The notes: generated by a model from the sequence alone, not told the origin. A DNA stretch of 64,000 nt from Candidatus Nomurabacteria bacterium RIFCSPLOWO2_01_FULL_41_18 (GCA_001785865.1 MFUZ01000003.1:15048-79047); one strand, 5' to 3'. Counted from the first letter of the stretch, positions 5,492 to 16,227 are shown. Made by a program: numbers and translations.

Positions 5492-7156
5492 ATGGAGCAA
5501 AAAATTAAAAATTGGATAAAAGAAATTTTAAAGATCGAAGGGGATTTTGTTTTAGTGCATCCAAAAGATATAAAAAATGGCGACTATACTTTCATTTCAT
5601 CTTTAGAAAAACCAGCAGAAGATTTAGAAAAATTAAAAAAAAATAAATTGGTAGAAATAGAAAAGATAGAAATGGTAGGTAGATTTATAAATTTATATTT
5701 GTCACGAAAGTTTTTTGCTTCGAGTGTGGAAGAAATTTTAAATCAGGGAGGAAATGTTGGTAAAAATGACTTCTTTACCGGAAAGAAAATAATGATTGAA
5801 TATACCGACCCGAACCCTTTCAAACCTTTTCACATTGGGCATTTGATGAGTAATGCTATAGGTGAATCTATTTCGCGACTTATGGAATTCTCTGGCGCAG
5901 AGACATCACGAGCAAATTACCAGGGCGACTTGGGGCTTCATGTAGCTAAAGCCATATATGGTCTTTTGCAAAATGAGAAATTGCAAGCAAAAATTGGTTC
6001 TCATAATCTGCAAGCAGAAAACATAGGGCGGGCTTATGCCTTCGGTGCTGAAGCATATGAAATCGACAAAAAAGCTAAAAAAGAAATTGATAAAATAAAT
6101 AAAAAACTTTACGACAAAAAAGATAAAAAAATAATTGAGATTTATGATTGGGGTTTCAAGGTGACGATGGATGCCTTCCAAGATTTGTACGAAACTCTTG
6201 GCACAGAATTTGATTTTTATTTCTTGGAGAGTCAGATGGCACCGATTGGAGAACAAATTGTTCGTGCAAATACTGGTAAAATTTTTGAAAAATCTGATAA
6301 CGCCATAGTATTTAAGGCTGAAAAGTATGACCCGAAGCTTCATACCAGAGTTTTCATTACCAGTGAGGGCTTACCTACTTATGAGACCAAAGAGCTTGGC
6401 TTGGCTGAAGAGAAGTTTAAAACAGAACCAAACTTGGATTTGTCCGTTGTTGTCACTGCAAGTGAACAAATGGATTATATGCGTGTTGTTGCCAAAGCCA
6501 TTTCTTTGATAAATCCAGAACATGAGAAAAAAATGAAACACATTACGCATGGCATGATGCGTCTTTCAAGTGGCAAGATGAGTTCTAGGAAGGGGAATGT
6601 TGTTACAGGTGAATCACTTCTGAATGATGTTCGCGATGCAATTTTAGAAAAAATGACGGATAGAGAATTCTCAAATGAAGAAAGAGAGCAAGTGGCTTCT
6701 AGTGTTGCTGTGTCTGCCATAAAATATTCAATATTAAAACAAGGGATTGGTGGAGATATTATTTATGATTTTGAAAATTCTATTTCTTTTGAAGGGGATT
6801 CTGGTCCATATCTGCAATATTCTTTTGCGCGTGCAAATTCAGTTCTAGAAAAAGCAAAGAAAGAAAATATTTTGCCCGACCCGCATGCTTTTCCTGCTGA
6901 AACCTTTGAAGTAGAAAAATTATTATACAAATTTCCCGAAATTGTTTTACGTTCTGCAAAAGAATACGAACCGCATTATATCGCGAATTATTTGATAGAA
7001 GTCGCCCGCGCGTTCAACAGTTTTTATGGCAATAATTTAATTATAGATAAAAAAAATAAAACTTCTTCCTACAAAGTAGCTCTCACTTTTGCTTTTACGT
7101 TTGTAATGAAAAGTGGTTTGCACCTCCTTGGCATCAAAGCTCCAGAGAAGATGTAG
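5492..7156 (+). CDS. argS: arginine--tRNA ligase
   Basis: Class I HIGH motif (PFHIGHLMSNAIGES), ArgRS-like N-terminal domain, an MSSRKG segment and a DALR-type anticodon-binding C-terminus. ATG at 5492, directly after the dut stop. Confidence 0.85.
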   Translation: MEQKIKNWIKEILKIEGDFVLVHPKDIKNGDYTFISSLEKPAEDLEKLKKNKLVEIEKIEMVGRFINLYLSRKFFASSVEEILNQGGNVGKNDFFTGKKIMIEYTDPNPFKPFHIGHLMSNAIGESISRLMEFSGAETSRANYQGDLGLHVAKAIYGLLQNEKLQAKIGSHNLQAENIGRAYAFGAEAYEIDKKAKKEIDKINKKLYDKKDKKIIEIYDWGFKVTMDAFQDLYETLGTEFDFYFLESQMAPIGEQIVRANTGKIFEKSDNAIVFKAEKYDPKLHTRVFITSEGLPTYETKELGLAEEKFKTEPNLDLSVVVTASEQMDYMRVVAKAISLINPEHEKKMKHITHGMMRLSSGKMSSRKGNVVTGESLLNDVRDAILEKMTDREFSNEEREQVASSVAVSAIKYSILKQGIGGDIIYDFENSISFEGDSGPYLQYSFARANSVLEKAKKENILPDPHAFPAETFEVEKLLYKFPEIVLRSAKEYEPHYIANYLIEVARAFNSFYGNNLIIDKKNKTSSYKVALTFAFTFVMKSGLHLLGIKAPEKM

Positions 7157-7176
7157 TTACGTAATCGATTACGTAA
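7157..7176. repeat. Perfect 20-bp palindrome TTACGTAATCGATTACGTAA spanning the stop codons of two convergent genes
   Basis: Exact reverse-complement symmetry. The argS stop is TAG at 7154-7156; the stop of the minus-strand gene (TTA on plus) lies inside the palindrome at 7169-7171. Related to the TACGTAA palindromes at 8054, 9714 and 11871. Confidence 0.7.
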
Positions 7177-7834
7177 TTTGCGAATCTAGATACAAATTTC
7201 CATCGTGTGCTAATTTAGAAACATAGCCAGTATAAGTTTGTGGGCTATTATCTTTTTGTAGTTGAGCGATCAAATCTTCCAAACGAAAGTCACTAATATC
7301 AAATTGTGCTTCTTCTAAAATTGACTGAATGTTTTGATCGAGACGAACATCGTTTGTTATTCTTTGAATCCTTAAAGTTTCTATACCTTCTTTTTGGTGG
7401 GTATATCCTCCTTTTTTCAAGAGTACATGATTTTTTTCTACGAATTCAAGAAAATATAAAACATCTTTTTCTAAAAATTCAAGCACAAAATGCATACCGA
7501 CAAAATCGTATTTCTTTTGTTTAAGTTTTTCTACTACTAAAGTAGATTTAAATCCGTTTTTCTTTAAAAGAGCCAGTGCGACAAGCGTCAGATCACTACA
7601 TGGGTTCATAAATCCGGTATCTCCGTCTGCGAGGATTTGTTCCGCATTTCTTTTTACAAATTTTTCAGCAATCTCTTCATTGCTCCATTGTTTTCTTTTA
7701 ACTCTCTCATTTATCCATAAAACCAGGCTATTTATTTTCTGCTCAAGATTGCCTTCAAACGTTTCCAGACTACTTTCATCAAAAGTGCTTGGTTTTGCCC
7801 TAGTTAGAGGAATATTTGGTCCTTTATTTTCCAT
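7169..7834 (-). CDS. hypothetical protein (a transglutaminase-like Cys fold is possible but weak)
   Basis: 221-aa ORF with no strong family motif. GFMNPCSDLTLVALALLKKNGF resembles the Cys region of transglutaminase-like proteins. Confidence 0.4.
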   Translation of the reverse strand: MENKGPNIPLTRAKPSTFDESSLETFEGNLEQKINSLVLWINERVKRKQWSNEEIAEKFVKRNAEQILADGDTGFMNPCSDLTLVALALLKKNGFKSTLVVEKLKQKKYDFVGMHFVLEFLEKDVLYFLEFVEKNHVLLKKGGYTHQKEGIETLRIQRITNDVRLDQNIQSILEEAQFDISDFRLEDLIAQLQKDNSPQTYTGYVSKLAHDGNLYLDSQIT

Positions 7835-7880
7835 GGGATTGTATAGATAATAATATCACAAAATCTGGTATAATATTTTT

Positions 7881-8060
7881 ATGCAAGAAGAAACAAAACA
7901 AAAGTTCGGAGAACATTATATTTGCCTTGGGGGCTGTAGGGGAGTTTCCAAAGTTCCCGGTGCCTGCAATTCGCCTAGTTGCGTAAATCACAATCACAAA
8001 CTCGTGAAGTGCAATTGTACAGATGGTTTGCATAACAATTTTGAACTCTTATTACAATAA
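7881..8060 (+). CDS. possible leaderless Cys-rich micro-protein (59 aa)
   Basis: Below the 60-aa track cutoff. The ATG at 7881 lies 7 nt after an extended -10 (TGGTATAAT, 7866-7874). 8 Cys and 4 His (CLGGCRGVSKVPGACNSPSCVNHNHKLVKCNC). Its stop sits inside palindrome copy A. Confidence 0.25.
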   Translation: MQEETKQKFGEHYICLGGCRGVSKVPGACNSPSCVNHNHKLVKCNCTDGLHNNFELLLQ

Positions 8061-8090
8061 GTACGTAATGTATTACATAATACATTGTTT
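8054..8090. repeat. Palindromic repeat copy A (ACAATAAGTACGTAATGTATTAC-ATAATACATTG)
   Basis: Shares AATAAGTACGTAATGTATTAC with copies at 9714 and 11871. Imperfect inverted symmetry; lies just upstream of the helicase gene. Confidence 0.65.
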
Positions 8091-8119
8091 TTGCAAATAC
8101 GTAGTACAATGCTTGAGCC

Positions 8120-9718
8120 ATGACTCAAGATCAAGCATTGAATATTTTAAAAACTGGTGCTAATGTTTTTCTCACTGGCGAGCCGGGAGCTGGTAAGACG
8201 CACACAATAAATAATTTTGTGAATTATTTGCGTGCTTGTGATGTTGAGCCGGCTATTACAGCTTCTACGGGCATCGCGGCGACGCATATCGGTGGGATGA
8301 CCATTCATTCTTGGAGTGGTATAGGCATCAAAACAAAACTAGATAAATATGATTTGGACAAAATTGCTAGCAGTGAATATGTTGTGAGGCGTGTTAATCG
8401 CACGAGGGTTTTGATTATAGATGAGGTTTCAATGTTGTCGGAGAATATGCTCAACATGATGGATGCTGTTTGTAGAGAAATAAAACAAAATAGCCAGCCG
8501 TTTGGTGGGATACAGATTATTTTGGTTGGTGATTTTTTTCAGTTGCCGCCAATTGTGAAAAAGGACTTTATAGACGAAAAACAGAATTTGCTTATTAAAA
8601 ATATTGTGAAAAATAACAGTTTTGCATATGAATCAGGCGCATGGGAACGTGCACGACTAATTGTTTGTTATCTTTCTGAACAACATCGCCAAGATGATGC
8701 TGATTTTCTGTCTGTACTGGGAGGAATACGAGCCAATAATTTTTCGCAATCACACAGGAATCACATAAATACTAGAAAAATTAATTTAGATAGTCAGCCT
8801 GCGAATATTACAAAACTTTTCTCACACAATGTGGATGTGGACAAAGTAAACAATACTGAACTTGTAAAATTAGACGCAGAAGTAAAATCATTTAAAATGT
8901 CTGGAAGTGGAAATGATAAAATAGTTGAAACGCTCAAGAAAGGATGTTTGTCACCAGAGAATTTAGAACTCAAAATAGGTGCTGTGGTGATGTGTACCAA
9001 AAATAATCCAAAAGAAAGATTTGTGAATGGCACTCTTGGTAAGGTGACGGGCTACGAAGAATTTAGTGGAAACCCGATTATTAAAACCAAGAATGGACGG
9101 AATATTGTTGTTGCGCCTATGGATTGGACAGTGGAAGAGAACGGTAAAATTCGCGCGCAAATAACTCAAGTTCCGCTTCGATTGGCTTGGGCTATCACAG
9201 TGCACAAGAGCCAGGGGATGAGTATGGATGCGGCGGTGATGGATCTCTCGCAAGTGTTTGAATTTGGGCAGGGGTATGTGGCACTTTCCCGAGTGCGCAG
9301 ACTCTCTGGACTTTATTTGCTTGGCATAAATGAGCATGCGCTCAAAGTGCATCCAGAAATTTTGAAAAAAGATATTGATTTTAAAAACAAGTCGCAAGAA
9401 GCTGTGCAAGTTTTCGGTAAAATTCTGGAAAATGATTTAAAAAAGATGCATGATGATTTCGTGGTGGCTTGCGGAGGGAAGGTGGGGAATTTATCCACCC
9501 CGACGCAAGCGTCACCCCTCAAGAGGGGAATTAAAAATGGATTTGCTGAAATCAGAGAGAAACATCCGAACGCATACAGGCCATGGAACAAAGAACAAGA
9601 CGAAGAACTTAGCAAATTATTTATTTCCGGTTTTAAAATACCAGACCTAATGAAAAAATTTGGCAGAAAAAGGGGAGGGATTTCTGCAAGACTTGAAAAG
9701 CTTGGGTTGGTGAAATAA
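8120..9718 (+). CDS. PIF1/RecD-family 5'-3' DNA helicase (AAA_30 + C-terminal helicase domains) with an extra ~90-aa C-terminal tail
   Basis: Walker A (LTGEPGAGKTHT), Walker B (LIIDEVSML), QLPPI, and a C-terminal ITVHKSQGMSMD with GQGYVALSRVR — the PIF1 signature arrangement. Tail: PWNKEQDEELSKLF...GGISARLEKLG. Confidence 0.8.
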   Translation: MTQDQALNILKTGANVFLTGEPGAGKTHTINNFVNYLRACDVEPAITASTGIAATHIGGMTIHSWSGIGIKTKLDKYDLDKIASSEYVVRRVNRTRVLIIDEVSMLSENMLNMMDAVCREIKQNSQPFGGIQIILVGDFFQLPPIVKKDFIDEKQNLLIKNIVKNNSFAYESGAWERARLIVCYLSEQHRQDDADFLSVLGGIRANNFSQSHRNHINTRKINLDSQPANITKLFSHNVDVDKVNNTELVKLDAEVKSFKMSGSGNDKIVETLKKGCLSPENLELKIGAVVMCTKNNPKERFVNGTLGKVTGYEEFSGNPIIKTKNGRNIVVAPMDWTVEENGKIRAQITQVPLRLAWAITVHKSQGMSMDAAVMDLSQVFEFGQGYVALSRVRRLSGLYLLGINEHALKVHPEILKKDIDFKNKSQEAVQVFGKILENDLKKMHDDFVVACGGKVGNLSTPTQASPLKRGIKNGFAEIREKHPNAYRPWNKEQDEELSKLFISGFKIPDLMKKFGRKRGGISARLEKLGLVK

Positions 9719-9756
9719 GTGCGTAATGTATTATGTAATATATTACGTAACTTTAG
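9714..9756. repeat. Palindromic repeat copy B (AATAAGTGCGTAATGTATTATGTAATATATTACGTAAC)
   Basis: A degenerate version of copy C with 3 transitions. Starts at the helicase stop codon. Confidence 0.65.
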
Positions 9757-9830
9757 TAGAAAAATAGACTGGATTACGGCATGACTGGAAAAGCATGGAT
9801 TGGGATAGTATTTTACCATTACGAAATTGC

Positions 9831-9859
9831 TTGACATTTTATATAAATGGGTATATACT
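9831..9859 (+). promoter_or_regulatory. Near-consensus sigma70-type promoter upstream of the GHKL ATPase gene
   Basis: TTGACA (9831-9836), 17-nt spacer, TATACT (9854-9859). Followed by two copies of TTGGTGGCA..GCTATCGAGG at 9887-9915 and 10007-10030. Confidence 0.45.
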
Positions 9860-10041
9860 TTTTATATTATTAATTTAATTATAGTTTTGGTGGCACTTTA
9901 GGGTGCTATCGAGGCTTTCAAAAATTTATGACTACTTGATATATATTTGGTTTGCAGGAATATTCTGTATTTCTGCGTTTTTAGCTGTTTATTAACTAAT
10001 AAGTCTTGGTGGCAAAAGCTATCGAGGTAAAGAATAAAAAT

Positions 10042-11583
10042 ATGGAAACAATAAAATACAACAAAGAAAACACACCAAACGCTGCTAAATTAATGGAATC
10101 TCTTAGGTATAGTGGTTATGACAACAATATTGCAATAGCTGATCTTATAGATAACTCACTTGACGCTAATGCTACAAATATAAACATTGAAATAAATCTA
10201 GATTCAAAAAAAGAAGAGCATATCGTTATAATAGATGACGGTTCGGGTATGGACGAGGAAACACTAGGACAGGCTCTTCGTTTGGGCTCTATTACTCATC
10301 GAAATGTGGAATCAGATTTAGGTAGATTCGGTATGGGAATGGTAACCGCTTCTATTTCCATAGCAAAAAGAATTGAAGTATTTACCAAACAGAAAGACAA
10401 ACCAATGCTTACCAGCATTATGGATCTTGAAGAAATGGCAAAAAGTAACAACTTCAATGTTTATAGGGAAAAATCTACCTCAGAAGAAATTAAATTTGCT
10501 AAACATCGTGGACTTGAAGATTCCGGAACTATTTTGGTATTAAGAAAATGTGATAAATTAACGAAATCAGGTGTTGTAGAATTTACGGACTCTCTTAGAA
10601 AAGATGTTGGAGAGACTTATCGTTATTTCTTAAGATCTGGTAAAAAAATTACAATAAATAATAAGTTAGTGGAAATTGTCGATCCAATGTGGACGGACGG
10701 AGGACTCACAAAGGAATACAAACAAAAGTCGGAAATCTTCAGTGATGAAAGATATGAAATAAAAATCGATGGCGCAGACAGCAAAGAGTCTTTTGCAGTT
10801 AAAATTTATGTTCTTCCGCAATTTGACCAAAGTGTAATGCGAAAATTAAAAATCAATGTCAAGAATCAAGGGTTTTATATTTTAAGGAATTATAGACAAA
10901 TATCTAAAGCAGATCATTTGGGTGGATTATGGGAACAACACAATGATCTAAACCGAGTCAGGGTAGAGGTAATATTTTCTGGAACGTTAGATTCGGCTAT
11001 GGGAGTTAATTACACAAAGCATAATATAAAACCAATACAAGCTATAGTGGATAAGTTTCAAAGTGACATCATGCCTCAGATTGACACTCTTAGAAAGAGG
11101 TTCAAAAAGGATACAAAAAGAGAGTCAGCAAAAGACCTGAATTTTTCTGAAGCAGAAAGAATTATTTCACAGAAAAATAAATTACTAGATAAAGCTGAAC
11201 CAGATAAAAAGGGTAAACCTACTCCTATAAATCCAGTTGTAAAAAGACCGAAAACGAAAGTTGAGGAAGAAGTAATAAAAAGAGGAAGACCCAGTTTGGC
11301 ACACCTTGCGAGATTTGAATCACATAGTTTTGGTCTGACTGGCCCTATTTTTGAAGTTGAAAAACAGGGCAAAATTACTATTATTCAATGGAATATCGAT
11401 CATCCTTTTTACGAAAGATTTCTTATAGAATATAAAGATAATATAGATCTGGTAAATGCTGTATCATTTCTTGCTTACTCTCTTGGAGAATCAAAACTAA
11501 AATATAGTAGCGATGAAACCTACGAGATGTTGGAAAACATTATGAGTACCATCTCTACAAATTTAAGGGTATTATTAAGTTAA
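10042..11583 (+). CDS. GHKL-superfamily ATPase (HATPase_c_3 / MORC-like 'paraMORC' type), 513 aa
   Basis: Bergerat-fold motifs: N-box ADLIDNSLDA, G1 IIDDGSGMD, G2 GRFGMGM, G3 GTILVL, followed by YRYFL...ITIN..V...DPMW, typical of MORC/MutL-like ATPases. The track start at 10006 is a TTG; the ATG at 10042 has a GAGGT 13 nt upstream. Confidence 0.7.
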   Translation: METIKYNKENTPNAAKLMESLRYSGYDNNIAIADLIDNSLDANATNINIEINLDSKKEEHIVIIDDGSGMDEETLGQALRLGSITHRNVESDLGRFGMGMVTASISIAKRIEVFTKQKDKPMLTSIMDLEEMAKSNNFNVYREKSTSEEIKFAKHRGLEDSGTILVLRKCDKLTKSGVVEFTDSLRKDVGETYRYFLRSGKKITINNKLVEIVDPMWTDGGLTKEYKQKSEIFSDERYEIKIDGADSKESFAVKIYVLPQFDQSVMRKLKINVKNQGFYILRNYRQISKADHLGGLWEQHNDLNRVRVEVIFSGTLDSAMGVNYTKHNIKPIQAIVDKFQSDIMPQIDTLRKRFKKDTKRESAKDLNFSEAERIISQKNKLLDKAEPDKKGKPTPINPVVKRPKTKVEEEVIKRGRPSLAHLARFESHSFGLTGPIFEVEKQGKITIIQWNIDHPFYERFLIEYKDNIDLVNAVSFLAYSLGESKLKYSSDETYEMLENIMSTISTNLRVLLS

Positions 11584-11592
11584 AAAAAATAT

Positions 11593-11841
11593 ATGATGTC
11601 AAAATGTACATGTAATAGTTTCAGATTTGAGCTAAAAGAAGCCTCTCCTGAAAATTCTAGATATAAATTTTATTTCATTCAATGTGCATTATGTGGAAAT
11701 CCGATTGGAGTTACGGATTATTATCATACACATACAGCGATAGAAGCTATGAAAAAAGAAATTGAATCTAAGATAAGAAATATAGAGTCAAGTCTTGTAA
11801 ATATCGAACATTCATTAAGAGCAATTACTAATAAGCAATAA
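11593..11841 (+). CDS. small zinc-ribbon plus coiled-coil protein (82 aa), partner of the GHKL ATPase
   Basis: CTC...CALCG Cys pairs, then a heptad-like C-terminus (EIESKIRNIESSLVNIEHSLRAI). Starts 9 nt after the ATPase stop. Confidence 0.5.
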   Translation: MMSKCTCNSFRFELKEASPENSRYKFYFIQCALCGNPIGVTDYYHTHTAIEAMKKEIESKIRNIESSLVNIEHSLRAITNKQ

Positions 11842-11864
11842 AAGAATTAATAATTCTTTTCATT
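11841..11864 (+). terminator. hairpin plus T-tract after the Zn-ribbon gene
   Basis: AAAGAATTAATAATTCTTT, a near-perfect palindrome, followed by TTTC. Confidence 0.4.
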
Positions 11865-11870
11865 CCATGC

Positions 11871-11911
11871 TACAATAAGTACGTAATGTATTACGTAATA
11901 CATTACGTAAC
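11871..11911. repeat. Palindromic repeat copy C; contains a perfect 30-bp palindrome TACGTAATGTATTACGTAATACATTACGTA (11880-11909)
   Basis: Exact reverse-complement symmetry checked base by base. 5' flank ACAATAAGT and 3' flank ACGTAAC are shared with copies A and B. Confidence 0.75.
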
Positions 11912-11914
11912 TAA

Positions 11915-12091
11915 ATGCCTACACAAAAACTTATAAATCAAAATGTTCGGAAGATAACCAAACTTGGCGGGAAGTCTTTAGCTGTGACTTTGCCTAGAGA
12001 ATTGGTGACAAAGCTCGGATGGAAAGAAAAACAAAAAGTGACAGTCAAAAGAGTCCGAGGCGGGTTGCTGATTAAAGATTGGAAGAAATAG
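11915..12091 (+). CDS. AbrB/MazE/SpoVT-family swapped-hairpin DNA-binding protein (58 aa), antitoxin-like
   Basis: Not in the ORF track (<60 aa). MPTQKLINQNVRKITKLGGKSLAVTLPRELVTKLGWKEKQKVTVKRVRGGLLIKDWKK; G.S..VTLP.ELV..LG...GD.V is the AbrB-family core. The ATG is 5 nt after palindrome C. Confidence 0.55.
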   Translation: MPTQKLINQNVRKITKLGGKSLAVTLPRELVTKLGWKEKQKVTVKRVRGGLLIKDWKK

Positions 12092-12099
12092 ATAAAACT

Positions 12100-12690
12100 T
12101 GCATTTTTAACATAGCCGTGCTATGGTGTTGGCTGTTCGTTCTTAGTTTTTAGTGTTCTTAACCTCACAACCAACAACCAAACTGCAGTAGTTTTTGTTT
12201 CTTATGACCAAAATAGCAATATGGGAGTCACATCCCATCTTTTCGGAGGCAGTAGTCTCGTTAAAAACCGAACTTCCACTGTGTCACTTGTGGCACATGT
12301 ATGCCATAGCATGGAAGTGTGTCGTAAATGTTGCTGAGTACGGGCCGGCTTTAAGAAGCCTAAACCCGGACGAGCTCGATATGTACGATTTTCATGAGGT
12401 GGCACTTGGTCAGGTTGGAGTTCAACTTGATCAGGCTTCACAGAAAACACGGGATTACCGGTGTCTTCTCTTGATTTACAGCATCAATGTCGAGGTTTCA
12501 ACTTTGGTGACCCACTTCTTGGCGTCCATCGTCCGGCATCTGCAAGCAATCACACCCCAGCTTGCAACAAACAAATAAGGGGGATCAATTTCACGAAGCC
12601 GTGGCCAATAAAGGTCCACGGTCTTCTCTTTTTTAGGGCAAAAAAATAGAATAAAAAAGTGTAAAAACAGATATTTTGTGCTAAAATCAG
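12100..12690. ncRNA. GC-rich (~50% against an AT-rich surround) region with no credible ORF: candidate structured RNA of unassigned class, possibly an ileS leader or a standalone ncRNA
   Basis: The composition jump is sharp. ORFs overlap on both strands (12195-12578 plus; 12202-12450 and 12476-12742 minus) and none looks protein-like. Multiple local hairpins, for example CGTGGCCAATAAAGGTCCACG. I could not convincingly place RNase P, tmRNA, SRP or T-box signatures. Confidence 0.3.
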
Positions 12691-12696
12691 GCAATA

Positions 12697-15600
12697 ATGG
12701 CTGAAAACGAAGAAAACAATCCCGTGCGAAACAACGGTTCACAAAGTGAACCTGTTTCTAACGGGACAAGTAAAAAAAGTGAAGTAGCTTTAAGAGAAGA
12801 AAAAGTTCTTGAATTTTGGCATAAAAATAAAATTTTTGAAAGGTCTTTGGAGAAAAAATCCCCAAAGGGACGCTACGTTTTTTATGACGGCCCCCCCTTT
12901 GCCACGGGGCAGATTCATTATGGACATATTTTAGGCAGTACGGCGAAGGATGTCATCGGCAGATATCGGACTATGCAGGGATACTATGTGCCGAGGAAAT
13001 GGGGGTGGGATTGCCATGGTTTACCGATTGAAAATATAGTTGAAAAAGAATTAGGCATCGCCGGCCACGTCGAGATTGAAAAATACGGAATTGATAAATT
13101 TGTTGAATACGCGAGGAGTAAGGTTTTGCAGTACGACAAGGATTGGGAAAAGGGAATCGAGCGAATTGGACGCTGGGTGGATTTTCAAGGTGGGTATAAA
13201 ACCATGGATAATACCTTCATTGAATCCGTCTGGTGGGCATTGTCTGAACTTAATAAAAAAGATCTTATTTATGAAGGTGTGAGAGTGCTGGCCTATTGTC
13301 CGAGATGCGAGACGCCTATAGCCAACTCTGAAATCGCGATGGATAACAGTTATAAAGATATTTCCGATATTTCGGTGTACGTAAAATTTGAATTGGAAGA
13401 TGAACCGGGGACATATCTGCTCGCTTGGACGACGACCCCGTGGACTTTGCCAGGCAACACAGCTATCGCCATAAATAAAAATATTGTCTATGTGAAGGTG
13501 AAAGTCGAAAATGACGTGATTATCCTTGCCAAGGATACCCTATCAAATGCTCTTAAAAACAAAGAATATTACTTGCTCGGGGAAATCAAGGGGGAAGGAC
13601 TCATAGGCAAGAGATATATCCCGGTTTTTCCATATTATCGAACTTCAAATGAAGCTCAGAGTAAAAACATTTGGAAAGTGTGGCATGCGGATTTTGTGAC
13701 CGCGGATCAAGGTACAGGTCTGGCCCATGAAGCGCCGGCATTCGGTGAAGACGATATGAATCTCGCGAAGCAAAATAATATTCCTTGGATAATTCATGTT
13801 GATGAAACCGGAAAGTTCAAAAAAGAAGTTTCAGATTTCGCTGGGTTGCTAGTGAAACCAAAATCGTCCGAAAAAGACGGCCATCAAAAATCCGACATTG
13901 AGGTAATAAAATACTTGGCAAAAAATAATTTTCTCTTTGCTAAAGAGAAAATAATCCATCCCTATCCGCATTGTTATCGATGTGAAACGCCGATCATATA
14001 TTACGCGTTGCCTTCTTGGTTTATTAACATTCAAAAAGAAAAAGAAAATATTCTCACACAAGGGAGGAGTCTCAACTGGATTCCAGCTCATTTGAAAGAG
14101 GGAAGATTTAAAAATATCTCAGAGAATGCTCCAGACTGGAATATCTCAAGAAACCGCTACTGGGCGAGTCCGTTGCCTATTTGGAAGTGCGACAAATGCA
14201 AACAAAAAACCTTCGTCAGTTCTCTCAAAGATTTAAAAGAAAAAACAAAAAAATCCGGCAATAAATATTTTGTGATGCGACATGGGGAGGCAATGTACAA
14301 TGCCAAACACCTTGATGATCCAAAAGGAGATCCCGACAATCATTTGACAAAGCAGGGCGAGGGTGAGACGGTTGCGGCCGCGAAAAAATTAAAAAGCGAA
14401 AAAATCGACATTATATTTTCTTCTCCATTTTTGCGCACCAGGGAAACGGCGGAAATTTTAAGGCGTGAACTTGGCTTCGGAGAAGAGCAATTGATTATAG
14501 ATGAAAGATTGCACGAGATAAACGAAGAGGACCAAAATTTGGTGGCTAAAAGAATGGGTGATTTCATTTATAGTACAGAAAAAAAATTTCAAGGGAAAAA
14601 TATTATTGTGATTTCACATGGCAATCCCATTTGGACCTTGCAAAGGATTGTGGCCGGCGTACCGCATGCCGATTTTTCAGAAAAACAAATGTTGAATACG
14701 GGGGAGGCCGAAGAATTGAATTTCATTCCATTTCCCCACAACGCAAATTATGAGCTAGACTTGCACCGGCCGTACATTGATCAAGTTCCTCTCGTGTGTA
14801 GTTGTGCTGGCAGTCTAACGCGTATACCAGAAGTGTTGGATTGTTGGTTTGAATCTGGTTCGATGCCTTTCGCGCAAGATCATTATCCGTTTAAAAATCT
14901 AGAATGGAAAAAAAATAATTTTCCGGCAGCTTTTGTCGCTGAATACATAGCTCAGACAAGAACTTGGTTTTATTATACCCACGTAGTATCTGCAATACTT
15001 TTCAAACAGGCACCTTTTAAAAATATTGTGACGACCGGGACTTTGCGCGCAGAAGACGGAGAAAAAATGTCCAAATCCAAAAATAATTATCCAGATCCTT
15101 GGATTTTTATAAATAAATACGGCGTCGATGCGCTGCGTCTTTACCTGATGTCTTCAACTCTGATGAAAGGCGAGGATGCTAATTTCTCGGAAAAAGCAGT
15201 GCAAGACATTGCCACTAAAATAATCGGGCGACTTTTTAATGTTTTTGCCTTTTATGAAATATATCGAAATAAAACACTGGAAAAAAATGACAAACCTAGG
15301 TCAAAAAATGTTCTAGATATTTGGATCTTGTCTAGATTTGAGCAAATTTTAAATGAAATTACCAAAGGGATGGAAAATTATGATTTGGCCGAAGCGACCA
15401 GGCCAATAGATTTATTTGTGGATGATCTTTCTACTTGGTATTTGCGTCGTTCACGAGAGAGGATAAAAGAAGAGGCCGCAAACCCCGCCAGGGAGGACGG
15501 GGCAAGGCAAACTTTATATTTTGTTCTAAAAACGCTTTCAAAACTTATGGCCCCTTTTGCGCCTTTTACTGCAGAGGATATTTGGCTTAAATTGAGGACT

Positions 15601-16227
15601 GGCTACGTTCCAGTGGACGGTACGCGGCATGATTTCGCTAAATCAGATGCAGAAAGTGTGCATCTAGAAAATTGGCCCAGTGTGTCAAGGGGCATCTTTG
15701 ACATTTTTGGAAATGGAAAGAGTAAAGTTCTGGAAGAGATGTTAATAGCTAGAGAAATTTGTACAATTGGAAATGCTGAAAGACAGAAAATTAATATTCC
15801 TGTGCGTCAGCCATTACAAACACTCTTAATTAAAGATGCAGCATTTAATCTAATATCAAAAAATAATCAAATATTAAATTTGATTAAAGAAGAGTTAAAT
15901 ATAAAAAATATAGTTTTCGATAATTCAGTAAAAAAGGGGAATAAGAGCATAACTTTGGATACGAATATCACTCCAGAATTAAAACAAGAAGGGGATTATA
16001 GGGAGCTGGTACGAGCACTACAAGATATGCGTAAAAAGATGGGGTTGACGCCTAGCGATGTAGTAAAAATTGTACTTGACACTAATGAGACAGGACAAAA
16101 ATTAATAGAAAAATTTGCGTCAGATTTAAAAAAGACTGTTCTTGTGTCTCAAATTAAATTTGAAAATAACGATGGGCAAGAAGTGAAAATAGATGATTTA
16201 AATTTCAAAGTTAAGATAGAAAGATAG
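12697..16227 (+). CDS. ileS: isoleucine--tRNA ligase with a histidine-phosphatase (PGAM-like) domain inserted between its zinc-knuckle Cys pairs
   Basis: HIGH (PFATGQIHYGHIL), WNISRNRYWASPLP, EVLDCWFESGS and KMSKSKNNYP. 1176 aa against a typical ~920-1050. The insert (residues ~520-700) carries the RHGE catalytic motif, SSPFLRTRETAEI and VISHG, and is bounded by CDKC ... CSCAG. Confidence 0.85.
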   Translation: MAENEENNPVRNNGSQSEPVSNGTSKKSEVALREEKVLEFWHKNKIFERSLEKKSPKGRYVFYDGPPFATGQIHYGHILGSTAKDVIGRYRTMQGYYVPRKWGWDCHGLPIENIVEKELGIAGHVEIEKYGIDKFVEYARSKVLQYDKDWEKGIERIGRWVDFQGGYKTMDNTFIESVWWALSELNKKDLIYEGVRVLAYCPRCETPIANSEIAMDNSYKDISDISVYVKFELEDEPGTYLLAWTTTPWTLPGNTAIAINKNIVYVKVKVENDVIILAKDTLSNALKNKEYYLLGEIKGEGLIGKRYIPVFPYYRTSNEAQSKNIWKVWHADFVTADQGTGLAHEAPAFGEDDMNLAKQNNIPWIIHVDETGKFKKEVSDFAGLLVKPKSSEKDGHQKSDIEVIKYLAKNNFLFAKEKIIHPYPHCYRCETPIIYYALPSWFINIQKEKENILTQGRSLNWIPAHLKEGRFKNISENAPDWNISRNRYWASPLPIWKCDKCKQKTFVSSLKDLKEKTKKSGNKYFVMRHGEAMYNAKHLDDPKGDPDNHLTKQGEGETVAAAKKLKSEKIDIIFSSPFLRTRETAEILRRELGFGEEQLIIDERLHEINEEDQNLVAKRMGDFIYSTEKKFQGKNIIVISHGNPIWTLQRIVAGVPHADFSEKQMLNTGEAEELNFIPFPHNANYELDLHRPYIDQVPLVCSCAGSLTRIPEVLDCWFESGSMPFAQDHYPFKNLEWKKNNFPAAFVAEYIAQTRTWFYYTHVVSAILFKQAPFKNIVTTGTLRAEDGEKMSKSKNNYPDPWIFINKYGVDALRLYLMSSTLMKGEDANFSEKAVQDIATKIIGRLFNVFAFYEIYRNKTLEKNDKPRSKNVLDIWILSRFEQILNEITKGMENYDLAEATRPIDLFVDDLSTWYLRRSRERIKEEAANPAREDGARQTLYFVLKTLSKLMAPFAPFTAEDIWLKLRTGYVPVDGTRHDFAKSDAESVHLENWPSVSRGIFDIFGNGKSKVLEEMLIAREICTIGNAERQKINIPVRQPLQTLLIKDAAFNLISKNNQILNLIKEELNIKNIVFDNSVKKGNKSITLDTNITPELKQEGDYRELVRALQDMRKKMGLTPSDVVKIVLDTNETGQKLIEKFASDLKKTVLVSQIKFENNDGQEVKIDDLNFKVKIER

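Follow-up and report, generated by a model that had tools for sequence, protein, structure and literature searches.

Palindromic box arrays as the probable operator of a small AbrB/MazE-fold protein in the argS-ileS interval of a Nomurabacteria genome

Between the synthetase genes argS and ileS, a 64,000-nucleotide stretch of Candidatus Nomurabacteria bacterium RIFCSPLOWO2_01_FULL_41_18 (GCA_001785865.1 MFUZ01000003.1:15048-79047; the whole stretch is called the window hereafter) carries four palindromic sites, all built from one short box, TTACGTAA. These boxes are probably the operator of a 58-aa protein of the AbrB/MazE fold encoded at 11915-12091 (abrB in the following), a binder proposed from sequence comparison. 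Three lines of evidence are laid out below: the strict architecture of the sites, the fold of the protein and the recurrence of the same arrangement in front of its homologues in many lineages of the ultra-small bacteria of the Candidate Phyla Radiation (CPR, Patescibacteria).

All four sites are arrays of the 8-bp palindromic box with an exact period of 12 bp. Two boxes are present in the first array (site 1) and three in each of the others (copies A, B and C). Site 1 (7157-7176, TTACGTAATCGATTACGTAA) contains its two boxes 12 bp apart and begins right after the argS stop codon (7154-7156); it overlaps the last codons of a minus-strand open reading frame (ORF; 7169-7834) and lies between two convergent gene ends. 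Copy A (8053-8091, plus strand) consists of the −10-like element TACAAT (8053-8058), the trinucleotide AAG and the boxes TACGTA (8062-8067), TACATA (8074-8079) and TACATT (8086-8091), the last of which is degenerate. It overlaps the end of a 59-aa Cys-rich ORF, whose stop codon falls inside the −10-like element, and ends 29 nt upstream of the ATG (8120) of a PIF1-like helicase gene. Copy B (9708-9750, plus strand) starts with a degenerate extended −10 element, TGgTGAAAT (9708-9716), that overlaps the PIF1 stop codon and is followed by AAG and the boxes TGCGTA (9720-9725), TATGTA (9732-9737) and TACGTA (9744-9749); the gene of a GHKL ATPase follows about 290 nt downstream. Copy C (11880-11909, plus strand) is composed of three perfect TACGTA boxes at 11880-11885, 11892-11897 and 11904-11909. 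Common to copies A, B and C is a left flank made of the −10-like element and AAG (tatTACAATaag, TGgTGAAATaag and TGcTACAATaag), and copies A and C, which form repeat family D3, are 80% identical over 55 nt with the promoter flank included.

The clustering of the boxes lies far above chance. TTACGTAA occurs five times in the window, where 0.93 occurrences are expected, and all five fall within 7157-11910. When up to three mismatches are allowed, the 30-mer of copy C has two matches (copies B and C), compared with none in 100 shuffles, and when the whole window was scanned for pairs of TACGTA hexamers at a distance of 12 bp, only these four sites were returned, with about 0.1 per shuffle. A sequence-only reading of the window had already pointed to the four sites and to a perfect 30-bp palindrome in copy C. 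Both are confirmed, the palindrome being the three TACGTA boxes. The same reading had described one shared palindrome of about 40 bp; the likeness of copies A to C stands, but an 8-bp box repeated at a 12-bp period is the better description. In a wider scan, which covered 82.7 kb of contig MFTS01000007.1 (GCA_001785375.1), one further perfect two-box site was found, giving a total of five, four of them in a 4.8-kb stretch. This fifth site, TTACGTAATGAATTACGTAA, lies 778 nt before the start of the window at 8237-8256 of L166 (L-numbers denote numbered loci of relatives, L166 being the window's own contig), inside the comEC reading frame, where it encodes YYVMNYV. It may have a function or may simply result from two Tyr-Val codon pairs.

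The position of copy C ties the boxes to abrB. A consensus scan predicted an abrB promoter at 11847-11876 on the plus strand, with a −35-like TTAATA, an 18-nt spacer and an extended −10 element, TGcTACAAT. Copy C starts 3 nt after this −10 element and ends 5 nt before the abrB ATG, so that the boxes extend over the entire leader and the expected transcription start.

The 58-aa protein matches PF04014 over residues 16-53 with an E-value of 5.1e-10 and 39.6 bits (cutoff 24.7). An AlphaFold2 monomer model of moderate confidence (mean predicted local distance difference test score, pLDDT, 70.6) shows a β-β-α-β-β order of elements (strands 13-18 and 21-25, helix 28-34, strands 44-47 and 50-53). In a Foldseek search of the PDB, nearly all of the top 30 hits share this fold (MazE, the N-terminal domain of AbrB, VapB, SpoVT), with weak E-values of which the best is 0.19; a sequence search of the PDB with the family profile gave no significant relative. 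The assignment to the AbrB fold is sound by sequence and consistent by the structure model, and no helix-turn-helix family was matched by the protein. Homologues were found in 192 matches, of which, among the matches listed, at least 120 are 65-93% identical; their source names include Nomurabacteria, Falkowbacteria, Paceibacterota and Moranbacteria. The family is tightly conserved and mostly 57-61 aa long, 23 of 31 aligned sequences being of equal length. The protein ends about five residues past the domain and has no C-terminal toxin-binding extension.

The arrangement of promoter, boxes and start codon recurs in front of the homologues. A protein-side scan of metagenomes provided 80 loci, 69 of them non-redundant. 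Scored for three TACGTA boxes with a 12-bp period in the 90 nt upstream of the homologue, 39 of the 69 non-redundant loci reach 14 or more of 18 points, as does 1 of 241 control windows. The array consensus reads TGnTAAAATaag-TAcgTA-aT..At-TACGTA-aT..At-TACgTA, and its first box is mostly located at −31 to −43. Over the 50 nt before the ATG, self-similarity peaks at a lag of 12 (0.50, compared with 0.29 in controls), and 44 of 68 loci have their best value at this lag. The shared layout is TGnTAnAAT, three TACGTA-type boxes at 12 bp and the ATG, as exemplified by gTGgTAGAATag-TTACGTAATGTATTACGTAATACATTACGTAA-cgaaaat-ATG in Nomurabacteria (L065), aTGcTAAAATaag-TACATATTTAATTACGTAATTAATTACATAT in Parcubacteria (L068) and gTGgTAGAATa-TACGTAAGGAGTTACGTAACAGGGTACGTAC in a Moranbacteria-type locus (L070). 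The Moranbacteria-type loci L070 and L115 keep the 12-bp box period with spacers that are not palindromic. Four boxes in a row are present in L126; its transcript can still fold as a hairpin, and this locus is therefore no argument against one. A divergent protein clade (…QEIRKIIKIGDS…; ...IRKIIKIGDS..., L144, L149 and L150) is preceded by another 12-bp repeat, TCATTATTTAAA; in these loci the box type changes together with the protein clade. The sequence-only reading had suggested operators of a single regulator, for which the AbrB-like protein was its candidate. This comparison, in which homologues from many CPR lineages have the array between the −10 element and their start codon, strongly supports the suggestion.

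A DNA-side scan for GTAATRYATTAYRTAATRYATT in 185,579 genomes, one per species, returned 54 loci. The full palindrome, often as the identical 30-mer, was found in Nomurabacteria, Minisyncoccia, Paceibacterota, a Parcubacteria metagenome-assembled genome (five sites over four contigs) and several Saccharibacteria. In L027, L029 and L044 the palindrome is directly followed by an abrB homologue; the identical 30-mer also precedes homologues in L029/L065 and L087, and in L062 a related TTACGTAA array is located about 140 nt upstream of the homologue. Tandem arrays of the form (TTACGTAATAWA)4-6 occur in Saccharibacteria, and arrays of four to six such units were seen beside gltX, upstream of mraZ and upstream of dnaG (L015, L031, L034, L058 from Saccharibacteria CAYNVZ01, and L062). 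In the closest species-representative genome (L021, 2460-3560) the palindrome has no abrB after it; about 1.1 kb of unusually GC-rich sequence follows, in which all ORFs are short, and then the ileS leader. Elsewhere the palindrome is found beside housekeeping genes; such distant sites would fit a regulon. Around the abrB homologues themselves, 12 extra sites were counted in 296 kb, compared with about 0.4 in shuffles. Several of them lie beside −10 elements or just upstream of neighbouring genes, the neighbours being a staphylococcal-nuclease-like gene (L093), an AlbA_2-like gene (L125), DpnI (L068), scpB (L159) and a nudix-abrB operon (L091). A scan of viral contigs gave 13 AT-rich matches, none with an abrB homologue, and a phage origin was rejected on this ground.

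The box has dyad symmetry, is present in two to four copies at a constant phase of 12 bp and lies over the start of the gene's own transcript; together these conserved features point to an operator for a symmetric dimer and not to an RNA or DNA hairpin. In the mechanism proposed here, the 58-aa protein would form a two-fold symmetric dimer of swapped hairpins, one dimer would read one palindromic box, and up to three dimers would align on copy C. Once occupied, copy C would cover the transcription start and the leader and shut the protein's own promoter (negative autoregulation); comparative conservation and precedent in the fold family are the reasons for which copy C is taken as the autoregulatory operator. 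Copy A, which precedes PIF1, repeats the module (−10-like element, AAG, boxes); in copy B, located behind PIF1 and upstream of the GHKL gene pair, it recurs in decayed form, and the two-box version at site 1 abuts the argS stop. That site 1 and copies A and B let the same protein repress or insulate the genes of the variable slot between argS and abrB is the simplest reading of their positions, and we consider the chances evenly balanced that it is right. Being direct repeats, the box arrays could in addition offer substrates for the deletion or gain of the genes between them.

Close relatives of the window give an impression of how this interval has changed. In L087 and L088, argS is directly followed by the operator and abrB. 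Positions 1-434 of L087 align to 6723-7156 of the window and positions 444-664 to 11864-12086; the corresponding alignments of L088 are 1-295 to 6884-7178 and 275-483 to 11880-12090. The two L088 alignments overlap, which means that its single operator matches both site 1 and copy C, and the sequence of site 1 is there the left part of the abrB operator. L088 looks like the result of a deletion between repeated box arrays. A more distant Paceibacterota locus (L168) contains NUDIX, dut and argS, then a two-box site, gatgtaaTTACGTAATAGATTACGTAA, at the argS stop, a 22-codon remnant of the PIF1 3' end (82% identical, E-value 5e-7) and two unrelated genes; further on come TGcTAAAATaag with three boxes, abrB, three genes and ileS. 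Since L168 keeps both the boxes next to argS and a PIF1 remnant, a loss in L087 and L088 is no less likely than a gain in the window, and a simple insertion of the block is weakened as an explanation. PIF1 genes upstream of abrB are also present in L068 and L114. On the gene orders compared, argS with a two-box site, the promoter-operator-abrB unit and ileS are an old frame with two variable slots, and PIF1 is probably an old resident of its slot and not a newly captured cassette. Ten assemblies with an identical protein are at least 99.66% identical in the same context and for that reason provide no breakpoints. The accessory island between argS and ileS that the sequence-only reading proposed thus keeps its variable content, as seen in L087, L088 and L168, but not its description as a cassette array.

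Several observations weigh against the operator reading as put forward here. About 40% of the homologue loci lack a clear TACGTA-type array and show other repeats or none. The Foldseek E-values are weak and the structure model is moderately confident. Within the window, the third box of copy A is degenerate, the −10-like element of copy B has a G at the conserved second position, and the best promoter match of the GHKL gene (9831-9859) is not covered by copy B but lies about 80 nt downstream of it; copies A and B may be decaying duplicates without function. The perfect two-box site inside comEC demonstrates that not every site is at a promoter, and in several CPR genomes the palindrome is intergenic and next to housekeeping genes, the nearest 8 kb or so containing no abrB. 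The co-location of boxes and gene would also be expected if another factor regulated abrB. That the boxes are bound by such another regulator, the abrB-like gene being merely one of its targets, is the form of this objection that draws on the arrays far from any abrB; we hold it to be unlikely, given that no association of the boxes is tighter or better conserved than that with the abrB start codon, that the box type shifts with the protein clade and that autoregulation through adjacent sites is documented for MazE and MraZ.

There are two further explanations. The palindromes could be repetitive extragenic palindromic (REP)-like repeats or factor-independent terminators that mark gene ends, as might be suspected from the location of site 1 and copies A and B at or just after stop codons, from the GTTTTTG that follows copy A and from the predicted hairpins of copies B and C (−13.2 and −14.7 kcal/mol), which are significantly better than those of shuffled sequences (z −3.8 and −3.3). 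We regard this as highly improbable. Five sites in 82.7 kb of contig, four of them clustered and one inside a gene, are too few for REP-like elements, and the REP reading was rejected on copy number. A U-tract is missing after site 1, copy B and copy C; the only T-run follows copy A, whose stem is at chance level (z −0.1), and the Moranbacteria-type operator of L070 likewise folds no better than shuffles (z −0.9). The box spacing is conserved in relatives, whereas hairpin potential is not, and copy C follows a promoter and immediately precedes a start codon. On the missing U-tracts and the unconserved hairpins, the terminator reading was rejected as well.

According to the other explanation, the palindromes are recombination sites of the attC, dif or att type, served by a site-specific recombinase, and the block is a cassette array. 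Units of one or two genes do lie between the sites, the variable segment has a box site at each end, both of which align to the L088 operator, L168 has different slot genes between its two-box site and its three-box operator, and copies B and C could form hairpins of −13 to −15 kcal/mol. Against this, no recombinase is found among the genes of the block or in the annotated 10 kb on either side, a tblastn search with serine and tyrosine recombinases of relatives gave no match in the window, and direct reading of the site borders revealed no GTTRRRY core. The boxes occupy a fixed place in the abrB promoter throughout the family, some arrays have no overall dyad, and the right end of the L168 PIF1 deletion is not at a box. 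The Nomurabacteria strain variants L065 and L066 differ in the genes upstream of abrB, and their breakpoint coincides with an unrelated repeat, GC-rich and about 200 bp long (…GCCGAAGCCCGCGCGGATTCCTCCCC…), which occurs in several copies and both orientations (L065 2322-2605 and 4823-4945; L066 2880-3085 and 4815-5021). Homologous recombination between repeated operators would explain L088 equally well. The idea of attC-like cassette sites finds no support, given the lack of an integrase, the short and perfect form of the palindromes and the strain indel that breaks elsewhere; the attC/Xer reading was rejected, a loose resemblance of copy B to dif notwithstanding, on a copy number of four to five, the lack of a nearby recombinase and the fixed promoter position, and recombination sites in general are judged quite unlikely.

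The genes of the block are framed on the left by argS (5492-7156, plus strand) and on the right by ileS (12697-16227, plus strand), the two edges of the conserved frame. The first variable slot begins with a 221-aa hypothetical protein (7169-7834) without a family match; it is encoded on the minus strand and convergent with argS, which corrects an earlier statement that all units are on the plus strand. The 59-aa Cys-rich ORF (7881-8060, plus strand), also in this slot and without a family match, has eight cysteines and several histidines, is preceded by TATAAT and is an annotated gene in GCA_001785375.1. The PIF1/RecD-like helicase of superfamily 1B (8120-9718, plus strand; Pfam PIF1, 8.4e-35), with copy A before and copy B after it, is followed by the GHKL ATPase (HATPase_c_3, MzaB-like; 10042-11583, plus strand) and its 82-aa Zn-ribbon/coiled-coil partner (11593-11841, plus strand). 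Downstream of abrB (plus strand), a 124-aa ORF (12204-12578) matches no Pfam or NCBIfam family. The ileS product carries a His_Phos_1 domain inserted in the middle of the synthetase core, an insertion present in all relatives seen (including L065, L068 and L168), and some relatives have a C-terminal HD domain on IleS.

Further observations concern the non-coding parts of the block. A near-consensus promoter, TTGACA-17 nt-TATACT (9831-9859), is followed by a leader of about 180 nt up to the GHKL ATPase gene; this leader contains two direct repeats, TTGGTGGCA...GCTATCGAGG, at about 9886-9911 and 10005-10027, in each of which a small stem is possible. A 174-aa minus-strand ORF (9313-9837), antisense to the PIF1 3' end and spanning copy B, is annotated as a gene in some metagenome assemblies (L005, L006) and is probably spurious. 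In relatives, the region in front of ileS contains a terminator and a T-box-like motif, AAGGTGGTACCACG, both recognized by eye (L021 3560-3720, L087 1600-1700 and L096 1560-1630); the motif is unconfirmed, with no call from Rfam. The segment 12092-12696 of the window is without this motif and contains the GC-richer 124-aa ORF and then a hairpin with a T-run (12599-12634). Rfam gave no matches at the gathering threshold in the whole window and in five related loci, nor at E-values up to 1 in 9700-12720, and ARAGORN detected no tRNAs in the window.

The genes that follow the homologues differ from locus to locus. Downstream of about 60 of them, the genes are mutually unrelated, with no conserved partner and no known toxin family among them. 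A toxin-antitoxin reading was rejected on these two grounds and on the lack of a C-terminal tail. Among the downstream genes of at least 100 aa (L086-L165), 16 of 36 are of restriction-modification (R-M), nuclease or defence type: DpnI (two), N6_N4 methylase (three), HsdR, HsdM, RadC with a type I system, PLD-SNF2, HNH (two), AAA_21, NYN, T5orf172, DUF4238 and SNase. Because the downstream genes are so often of this type, it is possible that the 58-aa protein has a role like that of an R-M controller protein on a different fold, a role suggested by the relatives' gene neighbourhoods and not directly applicable to the window. A bolder and rather doubtful extension sees in the pair a portable CPR control module, in which a regulator at the edge of a long-lived argS…abrB…ileS hotspot gates defence and accessory genes; arrivals, often R-M or nuclease genes, would be controlled through copies of the promoter and operator, and modules would be gained and lost through the operators. 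If true, this would amount to a functional counterpart of R-M controller proteins on a different fold, combined with an operator-mediated plug-in site.

CPR bacteria have few regulators and mostly cannot be grown alone, and to our knowledge almost nothing has been established experimentally about their transcription control. What is offered here is a conserved candidate regulator-operator pair, the 58-aa protein and a 36-bp site with the box TTACGTAA and a 12-bp spacing rule, which is testable without a culture of the organism, in vitro or in E. coli, and usable for regulon prediction across hundreds of genomes. The argS-abrB-ileS interval, as an old and recurrent slot for variable genes, many of them of defence type in relatives, may also help to read the plasticity of CPR genomes. 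Literature searches on TTACGTAA with AbrB, on AbrB regulators in Patescibacteria and on AbrB-type R-M controllers returned nothing specific, and the regulator-site pair is apparently undescribed for this protein family.

Among known systems, mazEF with its 'cab' operator is related through the fold family PF04014. MazE is small and dimeric and represses its own promoter, and in E. coli its dimers bind side by side at three sites of a 47-bp operator, one site being a palindromic hexamer (PMC4333400). As in type II antitoxin genes, the gene of the 58-aa protein has palindromic boxes at its own promoter, between the predicted extended −10 element and the ATG. Unlike in mazEF, no toxin gene is present, the downstream 124-aa ORF being without a family match, and the protein lacks a disordered tail at its C-terminus for toxin binding; a single palindrome makes up all three boxes, which keep strictly to a 12-bp period, and extra operator copies precede neighbouring genes. 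MraZ, which binds cooperatively with several subunits to three to four equally spaced repeated boxes overlapping its own transcription start (PMC12957436), shares the AbrB-type 'cradle' motif and the equally spaced boxes over the transcription start. It differs in being made of two fused AbrB-like domains that form rings, in having asymmetric GTG(G/T) boxes, separated by spacers of six nucleotides, instead of palindromes at 12 bp, and in heading the cell-division (dcw) cluster, which the present locus does not.

R-M controller (C) proteins are likewise small DNA-binding proteins with palindromic operators at their own promoter, the autoregulation being proposed in the present case, and C genes are often the first of an R-M unit, to which the 16 of 36 defence-type downstream genes of the relatives can be compared. 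C proteins are of the Xre type with a helix-turn-helix, whereas the 58-aa protein is assigned to the AbrB fold, and the gene downstream in the window is the 124-aa ORF, not a restriction enzyme. Like integron attC sites, the arrays are palindromes in imperfect repetition that set apart units of one or two genes, most of them in the same orientation. They differ in that an integrase is lacking, one unit is on the opposite strand, and the sites are 20-36 bp of 8-bp boxes, compared with 57-141 bp for attC, which has R and L boxes (R''-L''...L'-R') and extrahelical bases; moreover, the sites coincide with a promoter/operator conserved before a regulator gene. As a mechanism, autorepression by an AbrB/MazE-fold dimer on adjacent palindromes is conventional and would make this locus an ordinary kind of gene switch.

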